Assembly (NCBI GenBank): GCA_028710985.1
Contig: JAQTTB010000001.1
Span: forward strand, 523,014-587,013
Length of the DNA stretch: 64,000 bases
From: Patescibacteria group bacterium
GTDB lineage: Bacteria; Patescibacteriota; Patescibacteriia; JAHJFT01
Reading direction: 5' to 3'
The notes under the pieces are model-generated. The model saw only the letters and a program-made list of their open reading frames with translations, was not told the origin of the DNA and did not search any database. Shown here in pieces: positions 3,826 through 48,574 of this stretch (positions are counted from its first letter, which is position 1; each line of letters starts with the position of its first letter). A program made the translations under genes and the position numbers.

Positions 3826-5019
3826 ATGATACAAGACACTCAAAAACGCCAGGTGACGCGTAAGCCAGTCGCCCATATCGTAAAACAGCGTCCGCCCGCG
3901 GTACGCCTGTACCGCCGGATTGCTATCAGTTTTTTGATTCTGACAATTTTATTACTCGCCTTGGTGGCCTATCTTTCATTCTCTAGCGCCCATATTAAGA
4001 TATTCACGGCCGCCGAAACTGCAAGCGCTGAGTTTGTGGCCGACATCGTCAAGGTGGCGAGCGCGCCTAATCAGGTTGAGGGTAGGATCGTTGAGCGAAT
4101 ATTTGAAAAATCAAAAGAATTTACGCCGTCGGGCGAAGGCAAGACAACGCCAGCCAAGGCCGGCGGGGAAGTAACCATTATTAATAAATATAATAAAGAT
4201 CAGGCGCTCATTGCGACGACGCGTCTTCAGGCGACGGACGGAAAAATTTTTCGTATCGATAAGAGCGTCGTTGTACCGGCCGGCGGCGAGATAAAGGCGA
4301 CTGCTCATGCCGACAAAGAGGGCGCGGAATATGAAATCGGGCCGTCTCATTTCATTATCCCCGGGCTCTGGGAAGGGTTGCGTGACAAGATCTATGCCGA
4401 ATCCGCTTCTCCGATGACCGGCGGAACCGTAACTTTGAAAGTAGTGAGCGCCGACGATCTCACTCGCGCCGAGTCGGAGCTTGCAAGTGAAATATTAGAG
4501 CAGGTCAAGGCCGATTTAATCAGCGAGAACGCGGATCCGCGTTTCTCCAAACCGGTTTTTTCAATTGAAACGTTGGAAAAAGTTTCAGACACAATTCCTG
4601 GGCAGGAGGCTGACAAATTCACAATCAAGCTTAAGGTCAAGGTTATTGCGGTTTTCTATAATGCCGAACAAATGGACGGCGTGATGGCGTCCAAACTAGA
4701 GGAGGCCATGGATAGTGATCACACGCTCGGTGACATCATGGAAGACAGTATTATCTTCACGATTGGCCGCTATGATTCATCAACCGGAATTGTTAATCTC
4801 GCAGTGAGCGCGTTCGGCGAGGCGCGCCTCAAAGAGAACAGCCGGCTTTTGGACAAGCGGAAAATTACCGGCCTTGGCGTGGATGACGCTAAAAAGTATC
4901 TTATGAGTTCGCCGTCAATTGAGAATGTCGAAATTTCCTCAAGCCCGTTCTGGCTCAAGCGCGTCCCGAATTTGGAAGATCATATTGAATATGAAATAAT
5001 TTATGGAGGGACTGAATAA
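3826..5019 (+). CDS. hypothetical N-terminally membrane-anchored protein
   Basis: 397-aa ORF with a single TM helix (ISFLILTILLLALVAYLSF) after a basic N-terminus. No recognisable catalytic motif. Confidence 0.5.
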   Translation: MIQDTQKRQVTRKPVAHIVKQRPPAVRLYRRIAISFLILTILLLALVAYLSFSSAHIKIFTAAETASAEFVADIVKVASAPNQVEGRIVERIFEKSKEFTPSGEGKTTPAKAGGEVTIINKYNKDQALIATTRLQATDGKIFRIDKSVVVPAGGEIKATAHADKEGAEYEIGPSHFIIPGLWEGLRDKIYAESASPMTGGTVTLKVVSADDLTRAESELASEILEQVKADLISENADPRFSKPVFSIETLEKVSDTIPGQEADKFTIKLKVKVIAVFYNAEQMDGVMASKLEEAMDSDHTLGDIMEDSIIFTIGRYDSSTGIVNLAVSAFGEARLKENSRLLDKRKITGLGVDDAKKYLMSSPSIENVEISSSPFWLKRVPNLEDHIEYEIIYGGTE

Positions 5020-39684: not shown

Positions 39685-40551
39685 ATGTTTATTTATCTTA
39701 TCCAAATAGTCTGTTTCGTGCTCTTCGGCGTTCTGGCAGTAATCGCGCTGCGCCGCCGTGAGCTTTGGACTTTGTTCGTGGCGACGATTTACGCCGCTTT
39801 TTTTGAAAATCTCGACATCATCATTTCCCGCGGAGAGTTTGGCAGTTACACCTATGATCCCCATCTTATCCTCATCGTCATTCAAACCCCGCTTTTTGTC
39901 ATTCTGTCCTGGGGCATAATTTTTTACTCATCATTCCTGCTTGCGAAAGGGCTGACCCGAAAGTTTTGGATTCAGGCGCTCTCCGTGCCTCTTCTCGCAA
40001 CAATTATAGATTTGACCATGGATCCGGTGGCCACACGGCTTGGGTTGTGGTCATGGCAGGGCTATGGCGCGCACGACGGCATTCTCGGCGTGCCGCTCGC
40101 GAATTTCATGGGCTGGTATCTCGTAGTGTTTGCACTCATGATCACCTTGCGCCTTATCGGTCACATTGATTTTTTGGGACGAACGGGCCGCAATGTCATC
40201 ATGCCAATTTTTTCCTGCGGGCTTTTTTTTATTTTTTTCGCTGCGTTCAGTTTTACGGCCAATGCGTTCGGCCTGAATATTTCAAATCAGTTTAATTTTA
40301 TCCAATTTTTCTTTCCGCCGGTTGCGGCGGCTTGCATTATCGGTTGGATATTATTTCCGGGAAAAATCAGCATCAGTCGTAGCCATCTTTTTTGGATGTA
40401 TGCATCGCGTGGGCTTTTCTACATATTTTCGGTTTACGGATTAATCGCTCTGGGCTTCTGGAAAGAGCCGGTGTTCATTATTCTGCTGGTCTTCTCGCTG
40501 GTTATCGAAATCATTGCAGGTATAAAATTTAAAATAAATGCCAAGACTTAG
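39685..40551 (+). CDS. hypothetical polytopic membrane protein
   Basis: 288 aa with seven or eight predicted helices. Confidence 0.5.
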   Translation: MFIYLIQIVCFVLFGVLAVIALRRRELWTLFVATIYAAFFENLDIIISRGEFGSYTYDPHLILIVIQTPLFVILSWGIIFYSSFLLAKGLTRKFWIQALSVPLLATIIDLTMDPVATRLGLWSWQGYGAHDGILGVPLANFMGWYLVVFALMITLRLIGHIDFLGRTGRNVIMPIFSCGLFFIFFAAFSFTANAFGLNISNQFNFIQFFFPPVAAACIIGWILFPGKISISRSHLFWMYASRGLFYIFSVYGLIALGFWKEPVFIILLVFSLVIEIIAGIKFKINAKT

Positions 40552-41917
40552 CGCTTCACAGCTTTACAATTTTTCTCAGTGCCCCTACCGCGTCCACCTT
40601 GATATTTTCGGAGATGAGAAAGAGAAATCGCCGGAATCGGATTTCCTCGCCATGCTGATCGAGGAGGGCGTGCGTCATGAAAAAGACGCCATCGCTGAAA
40701 TGCCATTCTTAGAGGTGGAGGCGCGCGGCACGCTTACGGCACGAGCCGAAGTTACACGCGACCTGATGAAAAAGAAAACGCCCTGGATTTATCAGGGCGT
40801 GCTTCTGACTCGCACCATGGTCGGCATTCCTGATATTTTGGAATATACGGGCGGCCGGTATATCCCCGTGGAAATCAAGTCCGGTGCCGGTCTTAAGGAA
40901 GCGTATATCCAGCAAATCTGTTTTTACGATGAGTTGCTCGGCGAGCTTTTTGGACGTCGTTCGGGTCGCGGTAAAATAATAAATATCAAGAAAGAAATTT
41001 TGGAAGTGGACTGCAATGCCTCGCGTCGCGCCTTTCTTGATAACCTTGCCGCCCTTAAGAAAATCGCCTCGGGTGAAGAAGAGAGTGAGCTGGCCATCGG
41101 TTCGGATTGCAATAACTGCCACTGGAGAAAATTCTGCGAAGAAAAAGCGCGCGCCGAAGATGATCTTACTCTGATCCACGGTCTCGGCCGAGCGTTCAAA
41201 GAGGGGCTGAGGCAGGCCGGGATCAAAACCCAGGGCCAAGCCGCTAAGGTCGATCCGTCGCTCGCGCGCGAAATCCGGCGCCTCGGTCCGGCAAAGCTTG
41301 AAAAATTCCGCGAACAGGCTAAGGTGAACATTGCCGGCAAGATGATGGTTTTCGCGAGGCCCACGATGCGCTGCGCGCCCCTCGAGATATTCATCGATCT
41401 CGAAGGGGATCCGATGCTCGGGATAGACTACCTTATTGGTATGATCGTCCGAAAAAAGGGTAAGGAGCAGTATGTCAGCTTCGTTGCCCGCCGGCCCGAA
41501 GATGAGGCCGCGATGTGGGAGGAGTTCCTTAATTTCATGGCCGGCATCTCGGAAGATTACATTCTTTATCATTATCATAATTATGAAAAAGTGCATTTCA
41601 AGATGCTGTTCGAAAAATATGGCGGCGACGGAGAGCTTTATCATGAAATCGACTATGCGCTCGAGGATCTGAAGAGAACGATCGATAAATCAATGTATCT
41701 TCCGCTTACGCGCTATAGCCTCAAGTGCGTTGCGCGCCATTTGGGTTTTGAATGGCGCGCGGGAGAAGAGGCCGGAGGCGCAAATTCCATTATCTGGTAC
41801 GAGAAATATCTTGGGGATACTGAAAAGAATGCAGATTTGATGCAAAAAATTATTGACTACAATGCCGATGACTGCCGCGCGACCCGTGTGGTCAAAGACT
41901 GGCTTGAGAAAATTTGA
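40538..41917 (+). CDS. RecB-family nuclease, TM0106-type (PD-(D/E)xK nuclease with Cas4-like Cys cluster plus RNase-H-like C-terminal domain)
   Basis: N-terminal YNFSQCPYRVHLD; Cys cluster CNNCHWRKFC; C-terminal IDYNADDCRAT, typical of TIGR03491-like proteins (from memory). Confidence 0.65.
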   Translation: MPRLSASQLYNFSQCPYRVHLDIFGDEKEKSPESDFLAMLIEEGVRHEKDAIAEMPFLEVEARGTLTARAEVTRDLMKKKTPWIYQGVLLTRTMVGIPDILEYTGGRYIPVEIKSGAGLKEAYIQQICFYDELLGELFGRRSGRGKIINIKKEILEVDCNASRRAFLDNLAALKKIASGEEESELAIGSDCNNCHWRKFCEEKARAEDDLTLIHGLGRAFKEGLRQAGIKTQGQAAKVDPSLAREIRRLGPAKLEKFREQAKVNIAGKMMVFARPTMRCAPLEIFIDLEGDPMLGIDYLIGMIVRKKGKEQYVSFVARRPEDEAAMWEEFLNFMAGISEDYILYHYHNYEKVHFKMLFEKYGGDGELYHEIDYALEDLKRTIDKSMYLPLTRYSLKCVARHLGFEWRAGEEAGGANSIIWYEKYLGDTEKNADLMQKIIDYNADDCRATRVVKDWLEKI

Positions 41918-42715: not shown

Positions 42716-43150
42716 ATGATATCACTTTCTTACGGATTTATTGCCGGTGGCATCGGCGGCATTGTCATGGCCATACTAATTCATCTTGCACCGCTTATTG
42801 CAAGCAAAAAATATTTACCCGATATTGATAAGTACTTTTTTCTCGGCCGTCATTTTTCGGCTCGCGAAGTCCATCTCTTTGGAATTTTTATTCAGCTCGC
42901 CTTGAGTGTAATTTTCGGCGGGATATATATTCTACTCGTTGATCAAAAAATAATATTTCATGATTTTCACTATGTGTCCATTCTTTTTTACGGCGTACTT
43001 GTCTGGCTCGCCAAGGGGGCGATTCTCACCCCGCTCCTCGGGGCCGGGTTCTTCGGCGCCAAGCAGGGAAAATACGTCTGGCTGGAAATGTTTATAATCC
43101 ATCAAATTTACGCCCTGGTTTTCTGGCTGGCGGTCAATTTATACGTCTGA
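42716..43150 (+). CDS. hypothetical four-TM membrane protein
   Basis: 144 aa, hydrophobic throughout. Confidence 0.45.
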   Translation: MISLSYGFIAGGIGGIVMAILIHLAPLIASKKYLPDIDKYFFLGRHFSAREVHLFGIFIQLALSVIFGGIYILLVDQKIIFHDFHYVSILFYGVLVWLAKGAILTPLLGAGFFGAKQGKYVWLEMFIIHQIYALVFWLAVNLYV

Positions 43151-43302
43151 GTTATCCACAGAACCCGGTCCCTTTACTTGGAAAATATAGGCTGGTATAA
43201 TATATTTAGCCGTAAGGAGTGGTGATACGCTCTCTATGGCGATAGTTCGGGAAAACAAAATCTCACCATCCGGTGAGATTTTGCTTTCTAGAGTGTCGTC
43301 GC

Positions 43303-43331
43303 TTGACAGTTTTTCGCTTGTATTGTAATAT
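43303..43331 (+). promoter_or_regulatory. sigma70-like promoter of the rplJL operon
   Basis: TTGACA, 17-nt spacer, TAATAT. Confidence 0.5.
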
Positions 43332-43339
43332 ATTGTTAT

Positions 43340-43508
43340 CAATTTAATTTTTGCCGAAGATAACGGGGGTTTCAGCCAGAGGCTGAGGCTTAAAACCACA
43401 CCCCGTCGAGGTGAAATTCCGGCCTGACACTACTTTTAGGTCATGGACTCGGACCTCGTTATCTGCGGCAAAACCGCAGTTTATTTTTTACCCAAAGGTC
43501 GCAACTAT
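43340..43508 (+). ncRNA. rplJ (L10) leader with attenuator hairpin
   Basis: Structured 170-nt 5' UTR ending in CTGCGGCAAAACCGCAG plus T-run (43463-43490), just before the rplJ ATG. Confidence 0.5.
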
Positions 43509-44033
43509 ATGCCAAAAACAAGAGTACAGAAAGAAAATACCGTTTCCGACTTGGTCGACAAATTCAGCCGCACCAAGTCAGTGGTTTTTGCCGATTTTCA
43601 GGGGCTCAAAATGCCGGAAATCGACGAATTGCGCAACCAATGCCTAAAGCAGGGCATTTCTTACTCAGTCGCCAAAAAGACCCTGGTGCGCATCGCGCTT
43701 GAGAAAGCGGGCGTCAAAGAGATTGATCCAAAGTCAATTGAAGGTTCGCTCGCCACGGTTTTTGGATTTGAGGATGAGGTCGCGCCTGCAAAATTGCTCG
43801 CCACCTTCTCCAGAGCGCACGAGGCGCTCAAGATTAAAGCCGGCATACTTGAAGGCCGGCTCATTCCGTTCGAAGAAGTAATGAAGCTTTCTAAGATACC
43901 GTCAAGGCTTGAGCTTTATGCCATGCTCGTTCGTACCATGAATGGACCGGTTTCCGGATTCGCCAATGTTCTTGCTGGAAATCTGCGGAAATTTATGTAC
44001 GCATTAAACGCAATCAAAGAATCTAAATCATAA
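43509..44033 (+). CDS. rplJ: 50S ribosomal protein L10
   Basis: Start set at [11 protein letters not shown]10 fold. Confidence 0.9.
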
Positions 44034-44047
44034 ATAATTTTAAAAAT

Positions 44048-44452
44048 ATGGCAGAAGAGAAAAAAGACGTCGTGGTTCCGGAAAAATTCAAGAAGCTCGT
44101 TGAGGAAGTTGAAAAAATGAGCGTACTTGATCTCTCGGAACTCGTTAGCATTCTTGAGGATAAATTCGGCGTTTCGGCCGCCGCTCCGGCAGTTGCCGTT
44201 GCCGCCGCCGCTCCAGTCGCCGCCGAAGCCGCCGATGAAAAGACCGAGTTCAATCTTGAACTCCTTGAAGCCGGCGCCAACAAGATCAACGTGATTAAGG
44301 TGGTTCGTGAAGTCACGGGTTTAGGCCTCGCCGATGCCAAGGCCATCGTTGACAGCGCACCGAAGATAGTGAAAGAAGCCATGCCAAAGGCTGATGCCGA
44401 AGCCGCCAAAAAGAAGATTGAGGAAGCCGGCGGAAAAGCAGCTCTCAAATAA
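44048..44452 (+). CDS. rplL: 50S ribosomal protein L7/L12
   Basis: Ala-rich hinge and C-terminal domain ([24 protein letters not shown]). Confidence 0.95.
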
Positions 44453-44460
44453 TTGGTTAC

Positions 44461-44505
44461 AAAATAAAAAAAGAACGGCCGTGTAATTATGCGGCCGTTC
44501 TTTTG
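44461..44505. repeat. left 44-bp direct repeat / terminator hairpin flanking the RT module
   Basis: AAAATAAAAAAAGAACGGCCGTGTAATTATGCGGCCGTTCTTTT. Near-identical to 46289-46333 except for the 10-nt loop. Confidence 0.7.
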
Positions 44506-44554
44506 ATTTTTTTAAAAAAAGAGGCATCGCGTTTGCGATGCCCGAGCGGCGTAG

Positions 44555-45460
44555 TTAAATACCGAGTTTTCTTAATGCCCTCAGTCCGTTAAAGCGGTCG
44601 ACGAGCTTGGTTTCAGTGCGGTTGTGCGGAGCACAGTATTCGGTCGCCCCCCAGAAAGCGCCCATCATGCCAGCGGCCTGGGCAAAATTTGCACGGCCGC
44701 GTTTGACCGAGTACAGGCGGCCGCGTATCTTGCGCAGATAGTGCCGCGGGATAAAGATGCGGCTGGTCTTATCCATGGCAATGCCGTTGATGACCACCGG
44801 AGCCTTTTGGATGTCGCGGACAATGGATTTCTTATGGTTGATCTGGAATCCAGCCGCGAGAATGATGCGCCGTATCATCTGCCGCTTTCTTTTGCCGATC
44901 GGTTCAGTCGCCGAAAAGGTCAGGTCGTCGAGATAGCGCGTATAGATGATGCCGTGGCGCCGGCAGAATTCGCCGAGCGGCCGGTCAAGAAGTTCGCCGG
45001 CATAGCGGTTGGCAAGATCCGGCGAAGCCGGCGCGCCGGTTGCGAGCCCACCCTCGTCTGCTATGCAGTACTTATTAAGAAAGGCGAGAAGCCCTGTCTC
45101 GTCCTCCATCAGCCGTTCGTCAAGATTCATGAGTATCCCGGCGAGCCGCTCGGCGTCCACGCTCGGATAGAAATTGTGGATGTCGGTGAGGTAGAAAAAG
45201 CGGTTGCCGCGGTGCCGGAGCACATTTTTCTTGGGGGATGAGCCGCGCATCGCGCCGGTGGCGTGCGGCAGGGGATGGTGCTCGAGAAGGTGGCGCCGCA
45301 AGTAAAAGATTAGCCCGCGGTGGACCTGGCGCATCGCGTTATTTGGCGCGTAGAGCGTGCGCATTTTTACGGTCTTCGCTACCGGATTTACGTCTCTGTA
45401 GGTAAATTTGTTGAACCCCGGAGTCCCATCTATGTTTTTCAGAATTATATCAAAGAGCAT
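44555..45460 (-). CDS. stand-alone reverse transcriptase, retron- or defence-RT-like (301 aa, no maturase or endonuclease domain)
   Basis: RT motifs: HATGAMRGSSPKKNVLRH plus FFYLTDIHNFYPSVD (motifs 1-2), GLATGAPASPDLANRY (motif 4, the SP type), YTRYLDDLTFS (YxDD), AAGFQINHKKS (motif 7). AAGGAGG SD 5 nt before the ATG at 45460. TTGCAT, 17-nt spacer, TAAAAT promoter at about 45490-45520 on the minus strand. Confidence 0.8.
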   Translation of the reverse strand: MLFDIILKNIDGTPGFNKFTYRDVNPVAKTVKMRTLYAPNNAMRQVHRGLIFYLRRHLLEHHPLPHATGAMRGSSPKKNVLRHRGNRFFYLTDIHNFYPSVDAERLAGILMNLDERLMEDETGLLAFLNKYCIADEGGLATGAPASPDLANRYAGELLDRPLGEFCRRHGIIYTRYLDDLTFSATEPIGKRKRQMIRRIILAAGFQINHKKSIVRDIQKAPVVINGIAMDKTSRIFIPRHYLRKIRGRLYSVKRGRANFAQAAGMMGAFWGATEYCAPHNRTETKLVDRFNGLRALRKLGI

Positions 45461-45535
45461 GGCGCCCTCCTTATAGATTTTTGTGTAGGTTGATTTTAGT
45501 ACAGCGCCGAATAAAATGCAAGTAAATTTTTTTGG

Positions 45536-45916
45536 TATAAAAAACGCATCAAACCAGGGGTTTGACGCGAAGGGAGAAACCCGATTTTCATCGGGCAGTG
45601 AATTCACAGCGGCGGGTTGGCCAAGTTCGTTGCCCGATTCTGGGTTCTGCGGACAACGATCAAGAGAACAGACTTTGCCGCTGAGGCTTCGATGCAGGGC
45701 CGAAACGGCAGCGCCGAGGCCGCAGGCCGGGGCGCCCTCTGTGCCGAAAGAAGAAGAGAAGGGGCGGATACTATGGCAATTTCCGTTTCCGGAAATCCCG
45801 CTGGCGCACCTTGATGCGCCAACCCTCGTGGGCAAGAGCACTTTGGCGTCCAGCCAGAACCAGGAAACCGTCTTGGCCAACCCGGACTGGACTTGGCTTT
45901 ATCCTATCATAAACAA
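45536..45916 (-). ncRNA. structured ncRNA unit 1 upstream of the RT (RT-associated template/scaffold RNA candidate)
   Basis: No credible ORF or SD. Ends on the minus strand in GCGTCAAACCCCTGGTTTGATGCG plus a U-run. Shares conserved hairpins with unit 2. Confidence 0.4.
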
Positions 45917-46297
45917 AAAAACGCATCAAACCAGGGGGTTTGATGCGAAGAGAGAGAGTCCCGACTCGGTCGGGAAGAAAGTGCAGCGGCGGGTTTGAGT
46001 CATTGTCCGCAAGGGACTTTCCGGGCATGGGAGCTTGCCGCTGAAGATACCCGTGGCGTCCGAGGGCACTGAACAACGGGCCGAATCAGCCACTGCGGCC
46101 GCTGATCCGCCTCATGCAGATACCAACGGGAGCGCTTCGGGTTGCCCAGGGGCGATGGGGTACTGTTCAAAGCCCTGGTTTAACCCTTTGGCGCACCTGA
46201 AATGCGCCAAGACGATGAGCACCGAGGATCTCACCCGGAATGAACTAGCTCAAACCCAGCCAAGGTGGCTATGAAGAGGGTAGCATAAAATTCAAAA
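45917..46297 (-). ncRNA. structured ncRNA unit 2 (diverged tandem copy of unit 1)
   Basis: Ends in GCATCAAACCCCCTGGTTTGATGC plus U7. Same hairpin set as unit 1 with compensatory changes. Confidence 0.4.
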
Positions 46298-46333
46298 TAA
46301 AAAAAGAACGGCCGCGATATCGTGGGCCGTTCT
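46289..46333. repeat. right 44-bp direct repeat / terminator hairpin flanking the RT module
   Basis: AAAATAAAAAAAGAACGGCCGCGATATCGTGGGCCGTTCTTTTTT. Confidence 0.7.
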
Positions 46334-46336
46334 TTT

Positions 46337-48574
46337 TTATTCGCTGAATCCGAAATTCCAGACGCCGTTGTCGGCCAGCACCCAGATTTGGCGTGCCGTG
46401 CGATCGATGTAAAAACTTTTTATATTCTGCAGGTCGTTCAGGAGGTATTGAGTTTTGAGTTTACCGTCCTTGGCCAGTACTACAACACGTTTTCCGGCCG
46501 GGTCAAGAATAAATATATTGTCCGTACCCTCGGTCGTCCAAATTTGCGTCGCGCCCGTCAGCGCGGGATCAATGGTCGTAGCCGACCAGGATTGTTTTTC
46601 ACCGGTATAGAATTTATAAATTTCACCATTTGATTTCAGGGCGTAAATCGAGCCGTCAATCGTAATGGCGACTGCGTCCGAAAGATTGACATTCGCAGTT
46701 TTAATCCAGGCCGCGCCGGCCGCGAGCCCGGAATCGGGCGAGCGGTGCTGCTTAAATATTTGGTTCGCCGTGGTGTCCAAGACATAAATATTTGAATTCC
46801 AGCCGGCCGCGTCAATAAAGCTCTTTTGTTCGGCCGCGGCGGCGAGGGGAACGTCCCTCCACGAAAGTCCGGCCACGTCAATTTCCGAAGCCCCTGGGCG
46901 CTGGTCGAAAACCAAATATGAATTATCGCCGGATTTGTAAATCGCGGTAATGCTTTGTATATCCGCATTTTCCCAGTCAACTTCCTGCCAGGCATTCGCG
47001 TCGTCGCGCCAGACATAAAGTTCTTTTGCCCCGGAAAGAATCAAAGTTTTATCGGCGTTTCGCAGGAGATAACGAAAGTTAATCGTCTGGCCTTCGGCGC
47101 TGAGCGGCATGTCGGCGACTTTCTCTAAATCGTTTGGAATGACTTCATGGCGGAGCTCTTGGCGTAAAATATCAATTTGGGCGAGAAGTCCCTGTTTGAT
47201 TTCGCGCTGATCGCGCTTTGCTTCCGGTAGCGACTGGATTGCGGATAGCGCTTGGCTCACAAGCTCACGCGTGCGTTCCTCGTCGCCGTAGATCAGGGTA
47301 CTCTCGGCCTCGTCTTTTATTTGAGTGATCTCAATCACTTTATTATTATAAACCGCCTCGTCTTCGCGTGCATGTTTCCGATAGTTGAGATAAATCAGGC
47401 TCCATGCAAAAAGTAGCACCAGGATAAGGGCGATGATAAAAACCGATTTATTTTTCTTGCCGAGATGGCTGAACCAGCCGACCGAGCGGTCTCCGGTTTC
47501 CTGGGCATCGCTCTTATAGCTCGCGATGGTTTCGGCGCGTTTGCCGTGGAAGTTCGTAATGATAAAAAATAAGTTTTTGAAGAAGCGGCCGGTGATGCCG
47601 ATTGCGCGGAGCGTGATGGCACCGATCCAAATAAAGAATTTGGCAATGCTCCGGGGGAGTTCGCGCGGGGTTGGAGCGATTTTTTCCTCATATTTCGGGC
47701 CGCGTATTGGTATCAGTCGTGAAATTACCGCAGTGAGCCCAGCCCAAATCTTTGAGGCAAACCCAGTGCCGCCGCCTAAAAGATATCGGTCGGTTTCCGC
47801 GGTAGTCGCCTTAAGATGCTCAAGCGAACCTCGGAAATTCTTCGGTGCCGCCGCTTCGGTGCCGACCGGGATAAGTTCTTCATAATGCTGGATGATAATG
47901 GCCGTATATCCGCCGCGCAGACTGCCGTGCAAAAGTTCATTGCGCAGATATTCGACGGATTCGACCGGTTTTTTCGCGGTTACAATCGGCAACAGCCGTT
48001 CTTCGGGGAAGGCTTCGGCCAGTTCGGAGTTTGAGATTATTATGGCATCCCCGCTTTGGATGGAGCCGTACATTACATTTTCAAAAATTTTAACGGGATT
48101 AAAATTATCCGGATCGGATTGAACGTTCTTCGTAAGATCAAAAACGCGGTAACCTTTGCCATCCTGCTTCTGGAAAAACATCATTTTATTCTGGCCGATC
48201 GCGGAGAACGAAAGGTCCGTGCCGGAGCAAGCGGCGATTAAGATATTCAATTTCTTAAGATCCACCGGATTGGATTCTTTGGAGATAAAATCCGTGATAT
48301 TTTTATTGGTCGCCTGTAGGGATTTTTCAAACTCCGCGCCAAAGTCAATGCCATGCTCTTCCTGATAAAATTTTTCAATGCCGTCGATAAAGTTTTCGGT
48401 CAAACGTTCGTAGGCTGGATGGATGGAGTCGATTTTAATAATGCCAAAAATAGATCCGCCTTCATGCGCCGCACCCGGTGGAATTTCAAAATTAAAAACG
48501 CGGTTAATGCATTGGCGGTTCGTTGCGCTTTCTAGGAAAAGCTCGTTTATGAGTATCTCCGGCTTCTTTGACAT
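46337..48574 (-). CDS. large membrane protein: cytoplasmic N-domain, one TM helix, extracellular repeat (beta-propeller-like) domain
   Basis: 745-aa ORF. TM helix VFIIALILVLLFAWSLIYL in the middle. C-terminal half has repeated blocks (NIYVLD, SIYALK, NIFILD). Confidence 0.6.
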   Translation of the reverse strand: MSKKPEILINELFLESATNRQCINRVFNFEIPPGAAHEGGSIFGIIKIDSIHPAYERLTENFIDGIEKFYQEEHGIDFGAEFEKSLQATNKNITDFISKESNPVDLKKLNILIAACSGTDLSFSAIGQNKMMFFQKQDGKGYRVFDLTKNVQSDPDNFNPVKIFENVMYGSIQSGDAIIISNSELAEAFPEERLLPIVTAKKPVESVEYLRNELLHGSLRGGYTAIIIQHYEELIPVGTEAAAPKNFRGSLEHLKATTAETDRYLLGGGTGFASKIWAGLTAVISRLIPIRGPKYEEKIAPTPRELPRSIAKFFIWIGAITLRAIGITGRFFKNLFFIITNFHGKRAETIASYKSDAQETGDRSVGWFSHLGKKNKSVFIIALILVLLFAWSLIYLNYRKHAREDEAVYNNKVIEITQIKDEAESTLIYGDEERTRELVSQALSAIQSLPEAKRDQREIKQGLLAQIDILRQELRHEVIPNDLEKVADMPLSAEGQTINFRYLLRNADKTLILSGAKELYVWRDDANAWQEVDWENADIQSITAIYKSGDNSYLVFDQRPGASEIDVAGLSWRDVPLAAAAEQKSFIDAAGWNSNIYVLDTTANQIFKQHRSPDSGLAAGAAWIKTANVNLSDAVAITIDGSIYALKSNGEIYKFYTGEKQSWSATTIDPALTGATQIWTTEGTDNIFILDPAGKRVVVLAKDGKLKTQYLLNDLQNIKSFYIDRTARQIWVLADNGVWNFGFSE

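Follow-up and report, generated by a model that had tools for sequence, protein, structure and literature searches.

The stretch of DNA analysed here, hereafter the window, covers 64,000 nucleotides (nt) of a Patescibacteria genome (contig JAQTTB010000001.1, positions 523,014 to 587,013) and carries, between the ribosomal protein gene rplL and the gene for a 745-amino acid (aa) protein, a module that pairs a reverse transcriptase (RT) with two tandem non-coding RNA (ncRNA) units. Our preferred reading, to which we assign a probability of roughly 0.6, is that positions 44509-46292 represent a horizontally acquired, stand-alone retron-like system made up of one RT and two tandem cognate ncRNA genes, and that it belongs to an effector-less family spread across the Patescibacteria.

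The 301-aa RT that the original prediction had called on the minus strand from the nucleotide sequence is confirmed, its open reading frame (ORF) matching Pfam RVT_1 (E 1.6e-10), the only Pfam domain of the protein. The GenBank model is 350 aa long (P0001), with a start that extends over positions 45461-45607 (minus strand) through a promoter-like site and the terminator of the adjoining ncRNA unit; the N-termini of homologues and an AAGGAGG box at 45472-45466, 5 nt 5' of the ATG, lend support to the shorter start at 45460. This box bears out the Shine-Dalgarno sequence that had been predicted for the gene. The promoter predicted along with it is weak: the candidate site, TTGCAT-17-TAAAAT (45521-45493, minus strand; -35-like element 45521-45516, -10 element 45498-45493), agrees with the -35 consensus at 3 of 6 positions and was not flagged by a promoter scan. 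To judge from its sequence, the RT retains its catalytic motif, YLDD being intact and RYLDD near-invariant in a 37-sequence alignment of the family (A2). Retron RTs are marked by two signatures, an NAXXH motif in region X, between RT2 and RT3, with H as its most conserved residue, and a VTG triplet in region Y, within RT7, with G as its most conserved residue (PMC7736814). Both are found in the window RT and in its family. The first reads N79-V-L-R-H83, with H83 invariant and N79 at least 90% conserved in the alignment; the second reads ING, with G226 invariant, I224 at least 90% conserved and a consensus of [IV]-[NT]-G. The T of the triplet is thus often N in the family; several members have ITG, and the motif aligns to hvTGV of retron Ec83.

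Model scores point the same way. The top PADLOC matches of the window RT are all retron RTs, of many types (up to 117 bits). Among NCBIfam models, retron_St85_RT (NF038233) gave 116 bits against a cutoff of 235, NF038237 73 bits (cutoff 450) and NF042941 87 bits (cutoff 600), compared with 32 bits for Drt3a, 25.8 bits for Drt2 (NF041746; cutoff 390) and 22.4 bits for the group II RT/maturase model TIGR04416 (cutoff 300). A 37-member profile of the family, searched against solved structures, reached 1e-29 with the Ec83 and 2e-28 with the Ec86 retron RT (1e-29 to 1e-20 over Ec83, Ec86, Ec78 and Ec67), against 1e-8 for the group II intron RT GsI-IIC and 8e-7 for Drt2. These comparisons place the window RT in the retron lineage, outside every named retron family. 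The original prediction had put it close either to retrons or to the RTs of the UG and defence-associated RT (DRT) type; the retron lineage stands, and the UG/DRT lineage is contradicted by the PADLOC, NCBIfam and profile scores.

The RT has many relatives. A word-indexed search returned 66 homologues of about 300 aa with 39-51% identity, all from Patescibacteria wherever a taxon is named, and a gap separates them from the nearest named retron RT, at about 32% identity. An exhaustive profile search over clusters formed at 50% identity gave 505 cluster representatives with E<=1e-30, and for 150 or more of these E was below 1e-73. By these sequence measures, the family is a sizeable separate clade of the retron lineage, with several hundred proteins of about 300 aa, nearly all from Patescibacteria. 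A viral contig collection, searched with a phage origin in mind, yielded a single distant relative (27% identity). The RT family is described in neither PADLOC nor NCBIfam, its RNA is absent from Rfam 15, and the family was not found in the literature on retrons and RTs in Patescibacteria, the candidate phyla radiation (CPR), Parcubacteria or Saccharibacteria, the 1,912-RT dataset of PMC7736814 lying outside this comparison. The RT-ncRNA family is thus undescribed to the extent that Rfam 15, PADLOC, NCBIfam and the searchable literature can tell. The CPR group UG38 consists of UG/Abi RTs (PMC9226505); the window RT scores as retron-type and is set apart from UG38 by class rather than by direct comparison.

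The ncRNA is a real covarying family tied to the RT clade, beside which alone it is found. We retrieved the loci around family RTs from genomes (41 loci, mostly CPR metagenome-assembled genomes) and metagenomes (62 loci), most of which have 350-700 nt of ORF-free sequence adjoining the RT. An nhmmer search of the window units against the 41 related genome loci gave no match, which indicates that the RNA is not conserved at the sequence level; motifs shared across the ORF-free regions were seen by eye. Whole-unit MAFFT alignments were unreliable in the P1 helix and the variable regions, so the 5' core and the 3' domain were modelled separately and the helices P1 and P3 were tested by pairing each unit with its own partner segment or with those of other units. 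For the 5' core, which comprises a UGAGG motif and two hairpins, a covariance model (R1) was built from 13 units with the window sequences excluded. Searched against related loci that total 732 kb, it gave 62 matches, of which 61 lie on the RT strand, no more than a few hundred nt away from the RT. The second-round model (R2) likewise placed 61 of 62 matches on the RT strand and found none in the two sister loci that lack the module; the 3'-domain model (R3), also free of window sequences, placed 38 of 38 on that strand. Overall, about 50 loci have the RNA beside the RT, each with one to four copies, which lie either 5' or 3' of the gene. The covariance modelling with homologues that the prediction had proposed as a check thus bears out its structured RNA, and joint function of RT and RNA is well supported.

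The structure of the RNA is held together by helices that vary in concert. In the alignment of the two hairpins of the 5' core (HP1 and HP2), 92.9% of cells are paired, whereas shuffled alignments give 67.3%. The score for covariation, 0.775, compares with 0.285 for the shuffles, 0 of 500 of which reach it (slid controls about 0.17), and all 17 pairs show changes on both sides. The remaining helices were worked out on 48 non-identical units. P1, of 12-18 bp, pairs the 5' end of the unit with the segment that directly precedes a conserved CCGCUGA. In 81% of units, 11 or more of the 12 positions are paired, whereas partner segments borrowed from other units reach this in 8.6%. P3 joins a segment 7-10 nt after HP2 (typically GGUUC...) to a ...GAACC just 5' of a conserved UCAGCGG, with at least 8 of 9 positions paired in 44% of units against 6.8% with other-unit partners. 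Within the arm closed by P3 lie a polypyrimidine tract and a variable region of 36-275 nt. The two conserved motifs form a near-invariant 7-bp helix of their own (B:B'; UCAGCGG:CCGCUGA), positions 4-8 of which are paired in 45-48 of the 48 units. On a MAFFT alignment that was not structure-fitted, B:B' is 92.4% paired, with double changes in four of its seven pairs (0 of 500 shuffles); in a separate shuffle test 0 of 2000 reached the observed pairing, and compensatory variants include CAGCGA/UCGCUG, CAGCGU/ACGCUG, CAGCA/UGCUG, UAGCG/CGCUA and CAACA/UGUUG. Since CCGCUGA lies directly 3' of the P1 3' arm and UCAGCGG directly 3' of the P3 3' arm, B:B' is a pseudoknot that could stack between P1 and P3. 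The polypyrimidine tract, present in most family members, is 8-20 nt long, lies about 15-20 nt after HP2 within the P3-closed arm, and could serve as a template for purine-rich DNA, as a triplex element or as an anti-Shine-Dalgarno-like element.

Units often have their own terminator downstream, as in the window, and those directly 5' of the RT may run into its Shine-Dalgarno sequence instead. Two units at locus L005 have a common 53-nt HP1-HP2 block (96% identity). Tandem arrays also occur at L006, L007, L008, L012 and L016; three to four tandem units with differing P1 arms and variable regions precede a single RT at L012 (4815-5950) and L016 (4673-5855), so that the two units of the window are not the extreme case. 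In some relatives, L005 and L009 among them, the RT stands between units on either side.

In the window, the prediction of two tandem structured ncRNAs, each ending in a hairpin and U-run, is upheld by the folds, which beat those of shuffled sequence (z -4.5 for unit 1 and -3.7 for unit 2), and by a terminator scan [Table 1]. The units are about 375 nt each, with 74% column identity; they have the HP1 stem, motif B, B' and the terminator in common and differ in P1 arms, HP2 and variable arm, HP2 of unit 2 being enlarged and its polypyrimidine tract missing. R1 matches unit 1 at 45775-45832 (minus strand; E 0.0039), its sole significant match in the 64 kb, and the top window match of R3 is unit 2, at 45980-46054 (minus strand; E 0.055, or 0.0026 with a search space of 3 kb). 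R1 and R2 fail to recognise the 5' core of unit 2, and the 3' domain of unit 1 goes undetected by R3, probably owing to the 66-nt linker of this unit. Rfam matches neither unit, whether permissive E-value thresholds are applied to 43000-48000 or the gathering score to the whole window. Searches of the window for targets of the variable arms gave chance matches only. The ORFs within the RNA region have no Pfam match, and no conserved protein was found at 45.5-46.3 kb. We note a weak match of the 5'-core model at 44521-44584 (minus strand; 9.6 bits, E 0.063 in a 3-kb search), which overlaps the last RT codons and the RT terminator and comprises a CUGAGGG, an A-rich stretch and a hairpin; it may be due to chance or be a vestigial third unit downstream of the RT.

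Table 1. Features of the module and its immediate surroundings (window coordinates).
Feature	Position	Strand	Remarks
rplJ	43443-44033	+	
rplL	44048-44452	+	Pfam Ribosomal_L12
Palindromic terminator, left copy	44460-44508		Ends rplL on + strand; terminator scan 44469-44504; repeat family D1, inverted repeat I2
RT gene terminator	44522-44543	-	GGGCATCGC-AAAC-GCGATGCCT, then T7; terminator scan
RT gene	44555-45460	-	301 aa + stop; Pfam RVT_1
RT expression signals	45466-45521	-	Shine-Dalgarno, -10, -35-like; read directly from sequence
ncRNA unit 1, RT-proximal	~45540-45905	-	
Unit 1 P1 arms	45884-45872 + 45625-45613	-	Extendable to 31 nt; long-range inverted repeat I1
Unit 1 5' core	45832-45775	-	CGAGG motif, HP1, HP2 (GAAA loop)
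Unit 1 polypyrimidine tract	~45726-45744	-	CCCCUUCUCUUCUUCUUUC
Unit 1 motif B	45686-45678	-	CCUCAGCGG
Unit 1 B'	45612-45607	-	CCGCUG
Unit 1 small hairpin	45595-45580	-	
Unit 1 terminator	45569-45545	-	Intrinsic; hairpin + T-run
ncRNA unit 2, RT-distal	~45915-46292	-	Diverged
Unit 2 P1 arms	46257-46245 + 46002-45990	-	
Unit 2 HP1	46210-46188	-	Stem as in unit 1
Unit 2 motif B	46046-46038	-	CUUCAGCGG
Unit 2 B'	45989-45984	-	CCGCUG
Unit 2 small hairpin	45974-45960	-	
Unit 2 terminator	45947-45922	-	Intrinsic; hairpin + T-run
Palindromic terminator, right copy	46293-46341		Ends 745-aa gene on - strand
745-aa protein gene	46337-48574	-	

The RT-ncRNA family carries no associated effector gene. When all ORFs that encode 90 aa or more and lie no further than 3.5 kb from the RT were clustered over 89 loci, no neighbour gene family was present in more than seven of these and none was a conserved effector-like gene, in agreement with the original prediction, which had seen no effector within the module. 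Nor is there a family-wide small ORF (30-130 aa): the clusters found are confined to one closely related subclade, in which they overlap the conserved RNA in several frames and are thus considered spurious. Retrons are understood as tripartite systems, in which an effector gene accompanies the RT or a further domain is fused to it. The window module departs from this organization, its 301-aa RT having RVT_1 only and no linked effector gene. The neighbouring 745-aa gene shows no association with the RT at other family loci. Its product matches nothing in Pfam, NCBIfam or PADLOC; orthologues 53-61% identical occur in syntenic position in several Patescibacteria.

About 1.8 kb of extra DNA is present in the window, with a copy of the host terminator at either end. 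In two sister genomes the orthologue of the 745-aa gene (61% and 57% identity) converges on rplL, the two stop codons lie 57-58 nt apart and the spacer holds a single bidirectional terminator hairpin, which marks the module of the window as an insertion; gene order is otherwise as in the window (glycosyltransferases, two small genes, the 745-aa gene, convergent rplL and rplJ). The original prediction that the segment interrupts this junction is hereby verified, and the comparison with sister genomes that it had proposed as a check shows rplL next to the 745-aa gene with one copy of the terminator. The direct repeats of 44 bp that it had placed at 44461-44505 and 46289-46333 are present with slightly shifted coordinates [Table 1] and are of another nature: they are the duplicated host terminator and not the ends of an element. 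Both copies (49 nt, 76% identical, with identical arms and different loops) are palindromic, bidirectional terminators, the right one overlapping the stop codon of the 745-aa gene (46337-46339), and their hairpin pattern occurs at these two sites only in the 64 kb, against an expectation of none. The GC content of the module is 0.56-0.60, compared with roughly 0.43-0.52 in its flanks.

Modules at other loci are also flanked by duplicated host sequence, in the form of hairpins of 33 nt (L073), 30 nt (L042) and 19 nt (L053) or of longer segments. At L018 and L070 it is an identical 87-nt duplication of the 5' end of a miaA-like gene (4176-4262 and 5864-5950 in L018; same in L070), both copies of which retain a start codon, differ upstream of the identical stretch and, in L018, remain homologous although diverged outside it. 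Between the left miaA copy and the ncRNA there is also a piece of another ORF. The L018 arrangement looks like recombination-mediated acquisition from a related donor. At L074 and L075 a 142-nt gene-upstream segment that ends in a Shine-Dalgarno sequence is present in three copies (33-176, 1059-1200 and 2612-2755 in L074), two directly before gene starts (those of a UbiA-like membrane protein and of the RT) and the third, after the ncRNA, about 75 nt 5' of a phosphoribosyltransferase-like gene. These repeats give the locus a cassette-like arrangement, and both ends of L020, a 1,615-nt contig, are part of the same repeat, the contig ends being identical over 34 nt. No flanking repeat was found at most family loci. 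Across loci, the termini of the element show no conservation, and the duplications vary in length between 19 and 142 nt, with copies that frequently differ, which we read as homology-assisted recombination rather than transposition by the element; conserved termini, a fixed-length identical duplication, a transposase, an integrase and an endonuclease are all lacking. Acquisition would thus probably have occurred by a recombination-based insertion of foreign DNA that duplicated the host terminator, with no transposition encoded by the module.

The strongest competitor of this interpretation is that the module is a selfish mobile retroelement whose RT copies its own transcript (ncRNA and RT messenger RNA), the resulting complementary DNA inserting preferentially at terminators with long target duplications. 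The filled site of the window and the empty sites of the sister genomes, the presence of modules in unrelated housekeeping contexts and the duplications of host sequence at several independent loci (the 45-nt window terminator, L073, L042, L053, L018/L070 and L074/L075) would all be accounted for in this way, as would the end of the window insert 16 nt past the RT terminator hairpin, near the expected end of a transcript. We nonetheless consider it unlikely, as the termini are not conserved, the spacing between functional parts and duplications is variable, most loci have no flanking repeat at all, and the 301-aa RT has no endonuclease or integrase domain. The flanking copies, moreover, are often non-identical (the loops in the window; the miaA copies of L018 outside their core), which fits homology-assisted recombination of foreign DNA rather than staggered-cut fill-in. 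The genome loci each come from a different assembly, so that no genome showed a second copy, and a single exact RT sequence recurs in the same context on 10 contigs. Class C group II introns insert next to intrinsic terminators, and the position of the module at a terminator hairpin in the window, at L042, at L073 and possibly at L053 recalls this habit; unlike these introns, the module has no intron RNA domains and no maturase-type RT, and its terminator is duplicated on both sides.

That the module is instead the decaying, non-functional remnant of a retron whose effector gene was lost strikes us as very improbable. The lack of a linked effector gene and the divergence of unit 2 in the window could be taken in its favour, and orphan (msr-msd)-RT cassettes are known among classical retrons (PMC7736814). 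However, the two-part architecture recurs in hundreds of divergent lineages with intact catalytic residues and a near-invariant RYLDD, the compensatory evolution of the RNA helices requires continued selection on structure, and no effector-bearing member that could represent an intact ancestor was found. Least probable of all is that the units are independent small RNA or cis-regulatory genes beside the RT, or that the locus represents a piece of a group II intron or of a diversity-generating retroelement (DGR): each unit does have its own terminator and a promoter-like site separates unit 1 from the RT, but 61 of the 62 matches of R1 lie on the RT strand beside the RT, at some 50 loci whose neighbours are otherwise unrelated, no Rfam model matches at gathering score, the group II RT model scores far below its cutoff, and there is neither a template- or variable-repeat-like copy of the RNA region elsewhere in the window nor an Avd-like gene.

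The candidates of this last kind were rejected on specific grounds. For a group II intron, which the original prediction had named among the outcomes that would overturn it, the TIGR04416 score does not group the RT with intron enzymes; Rfam gave no intron match at E<=1 over 43000-48000, and its gathering-score scan of the whole window found no intron RNA. For a DGR, the units match nothing else in the window beyond chance 11-12-mers and imperfect matches of 16 and 19 nt (E>=1.1; the 19-nt match of the RNA region at 89% identity), and no Avd-like ORF was found in the window or in the neighbour survey. An endless ORF of the kind that DRT2 produces (Neo) was also considered and rejected, a hypothetical concatemer having no consistent stop-free frame and periods that are mostly not multiples of 3.

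Set against known systems, the family most resembles retrons. In retron msr-msd RNA, the terminal inverted repeats pair with each other around one to three msr hairpins and a long msd stem-loop (PMC7736814), and the order P1-HP1-HP2-P3-P1' found here follows this layout. Mestre et al. 2020 (PMC7736814) noted stand-alone "orphan" (msr-msd)-RT cassettes in RT clades 2 and 11, and the family shares with these and with other retrons a retron-lineage RT of about 300 aa with NAxxH and VTG-type signatures and no extra domain. As in retrons, the ncRNA adjoins the RT on the same strand, its paired ends enclose conserved hairpins followed by a variable, stem-closed arm, and the hairpins track the cognate RT. 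The family differs from retrons in the deep separation of its RT clade (~32% identity to the nearest named retron RT, below all curated cutoffs) and in an RNA core that is larger (about 160-420 nt), matches no Rfam model and has the UCAGCGG:CCGCUGA pseudoknot and the polypyrimidine tract. It further differs in that the ncRNA may lie 3' of the RT, arrayed in one to four units and equipped with its own terminator, that no effector is linked at any of the 89 loci, and that the family is almost restricted to Patescibacteria. These differences agree with the original prediction that the unit is not a textbook retron.

DRT2 and DRT9 are two-component defence systems that combine a UG/Abi-class RT with an ncRNA, and in DRT9 a U-rich template is used for homopolymer synthesis. 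The family resembles both in consisting of an RT and a structured ncRNA with no effector protein gene, a gene content which implies that the reverse-transcribed product itself would have to act, and its U/C-rich tract recalls the U-rich template of DRT9. It is unlike DRT2 in RT lineage, as the NCBIfam score of 26 bits against 390 and the profile value of 8e-7 against 1e-29 for retrons indicate, and unlike both DRT2 and DRT9 in that the window RT is about 100 aa shorter and the RNA architecture unrelated.

By analogy with retrons, P1 corresponds to the a1/a2 repeats. HP1 and HP2 are near-identical between units served by the same RT and are thus probably an msr-like handle for the enzyme, and the P3-closed variable arm with its polypyrimidine tract resembles an msd. 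The lineage of the RT and the architecture of the RNA make reverse transcription of the RNA a strong inference. We propose that the RT would bind HP1/HP2 and reverse transcribe a portion of the RNA, most probably the P3 arm, to give a short single-stranded DNA. Both ends of the near-invariant B:B' helix look like primer-template junctions, with P3 on one side and P1 on the other, for which reason we suggest that B:B' may act as the primer-template platform on which synthesis initiates, most plausibly from the 2'-OH of a conserved G, as in retrons. Given what the two units of the window share and where they differ, each would programme a different DNA product. Since no effector gene is linked, the RT-RNA-DNA complex would either work with an unlinked partner or itself be the active agent. 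Its most likely role is in defence against phages or other mobile elements, and this is the weakest link of the argument.

Several observations weigh against this interpretation. The opposing-G motif at the inner end of P1, which is the hallmark of the retron branching G, is absent from the 39 units inspected (5' side T14/A13/G9/C3, 3' side A16/T13/C9/G1), and no invariant unpaired G was found, the conserved Gs lying within the B:B' helix. The UGAGG motif is complementary to the CCUCA in motif B, a pairing with statistical support, since only 6 of 2000 shuffles attain it, and with co-variation between the two motifs (GAGG/CCUC, GAGA/UCUC, GAAG/CUUC). It overlaps P3 and B:B', with which it conflicts, and may represent an alternative conformation near the proposed initiation site. 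Unit 2 of the window is diverged, escapes the 5'-core model and has no polypyrimidine tract, such that it may be decaying. The window RT scores far under the curated NCBIfam cutoffs of every named retron family. The genes next to family RTs are housekeeping genes (aminoacyl-transfer RNA synthetases, TatD, helicases) rather than defence islands, a setting that gives no positive support to a defence role. Lastly, the priming site, the DNA product and the biological role or phenotype are all inferred.

A bolder version of the retron-like reading can be put forward tentatively, and we hold it to be more doubtful than not: a retron-lineage RT of ultra-small CPR genomes would use one to four interchangeable template RNAs, its DNA would itself be the active agent with no protein effector, and the pseudoknot would provide a priming platform unlike the a1/a2-branching-G arrangement. 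The active DNA could possibly be the purine-rich strand copied from the polypyrimidine tract, acting either in immunity or as an intermediate in the spread of the module.

Two further observations concern the surroundings of the module. A sub-threshold match to RF00557 (L10 leader; 32 bits against a gathering score of 44, E 0.018) lies just 5' of rplJ at 43336-43494 (plus strand) and is plausible as a divergent CPR L10 leader. Further upstream, a 459-aa ORF at 40538-41917 (plus strand) has a probable counterpart, by position and size only, in a 468-aa gene upstream in the sister locus L106 that carries PD-(D/E)XK/Cas4-like and RNase_H_2 Pfam matches; it appears to be unrelated to the RT-ncRNA module.

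Retrons are known as three-part, toxin-antitoxin-like defence systems and have been turned into genome-editing tools. The family described here would be a large, phylogenetically separate retron branch that consists of RT and RNA only, in bacteria with the smallest known genomes, and it raises the question of what a retron-type RT and its DNA product are capable of without an effector. The near-invariant pseudoknot, together with the lack of a classical branching-G context, suggests a variant initiation mechanism. Such compact RT-RNA pairs (about 300 aa and about 250 nt), with naturally multiplexed templates, may serve for DNA production in vivo, and the filled and empty sites with their duplicated terminators offer a handle on how modules of this kind move between CPR genomes.

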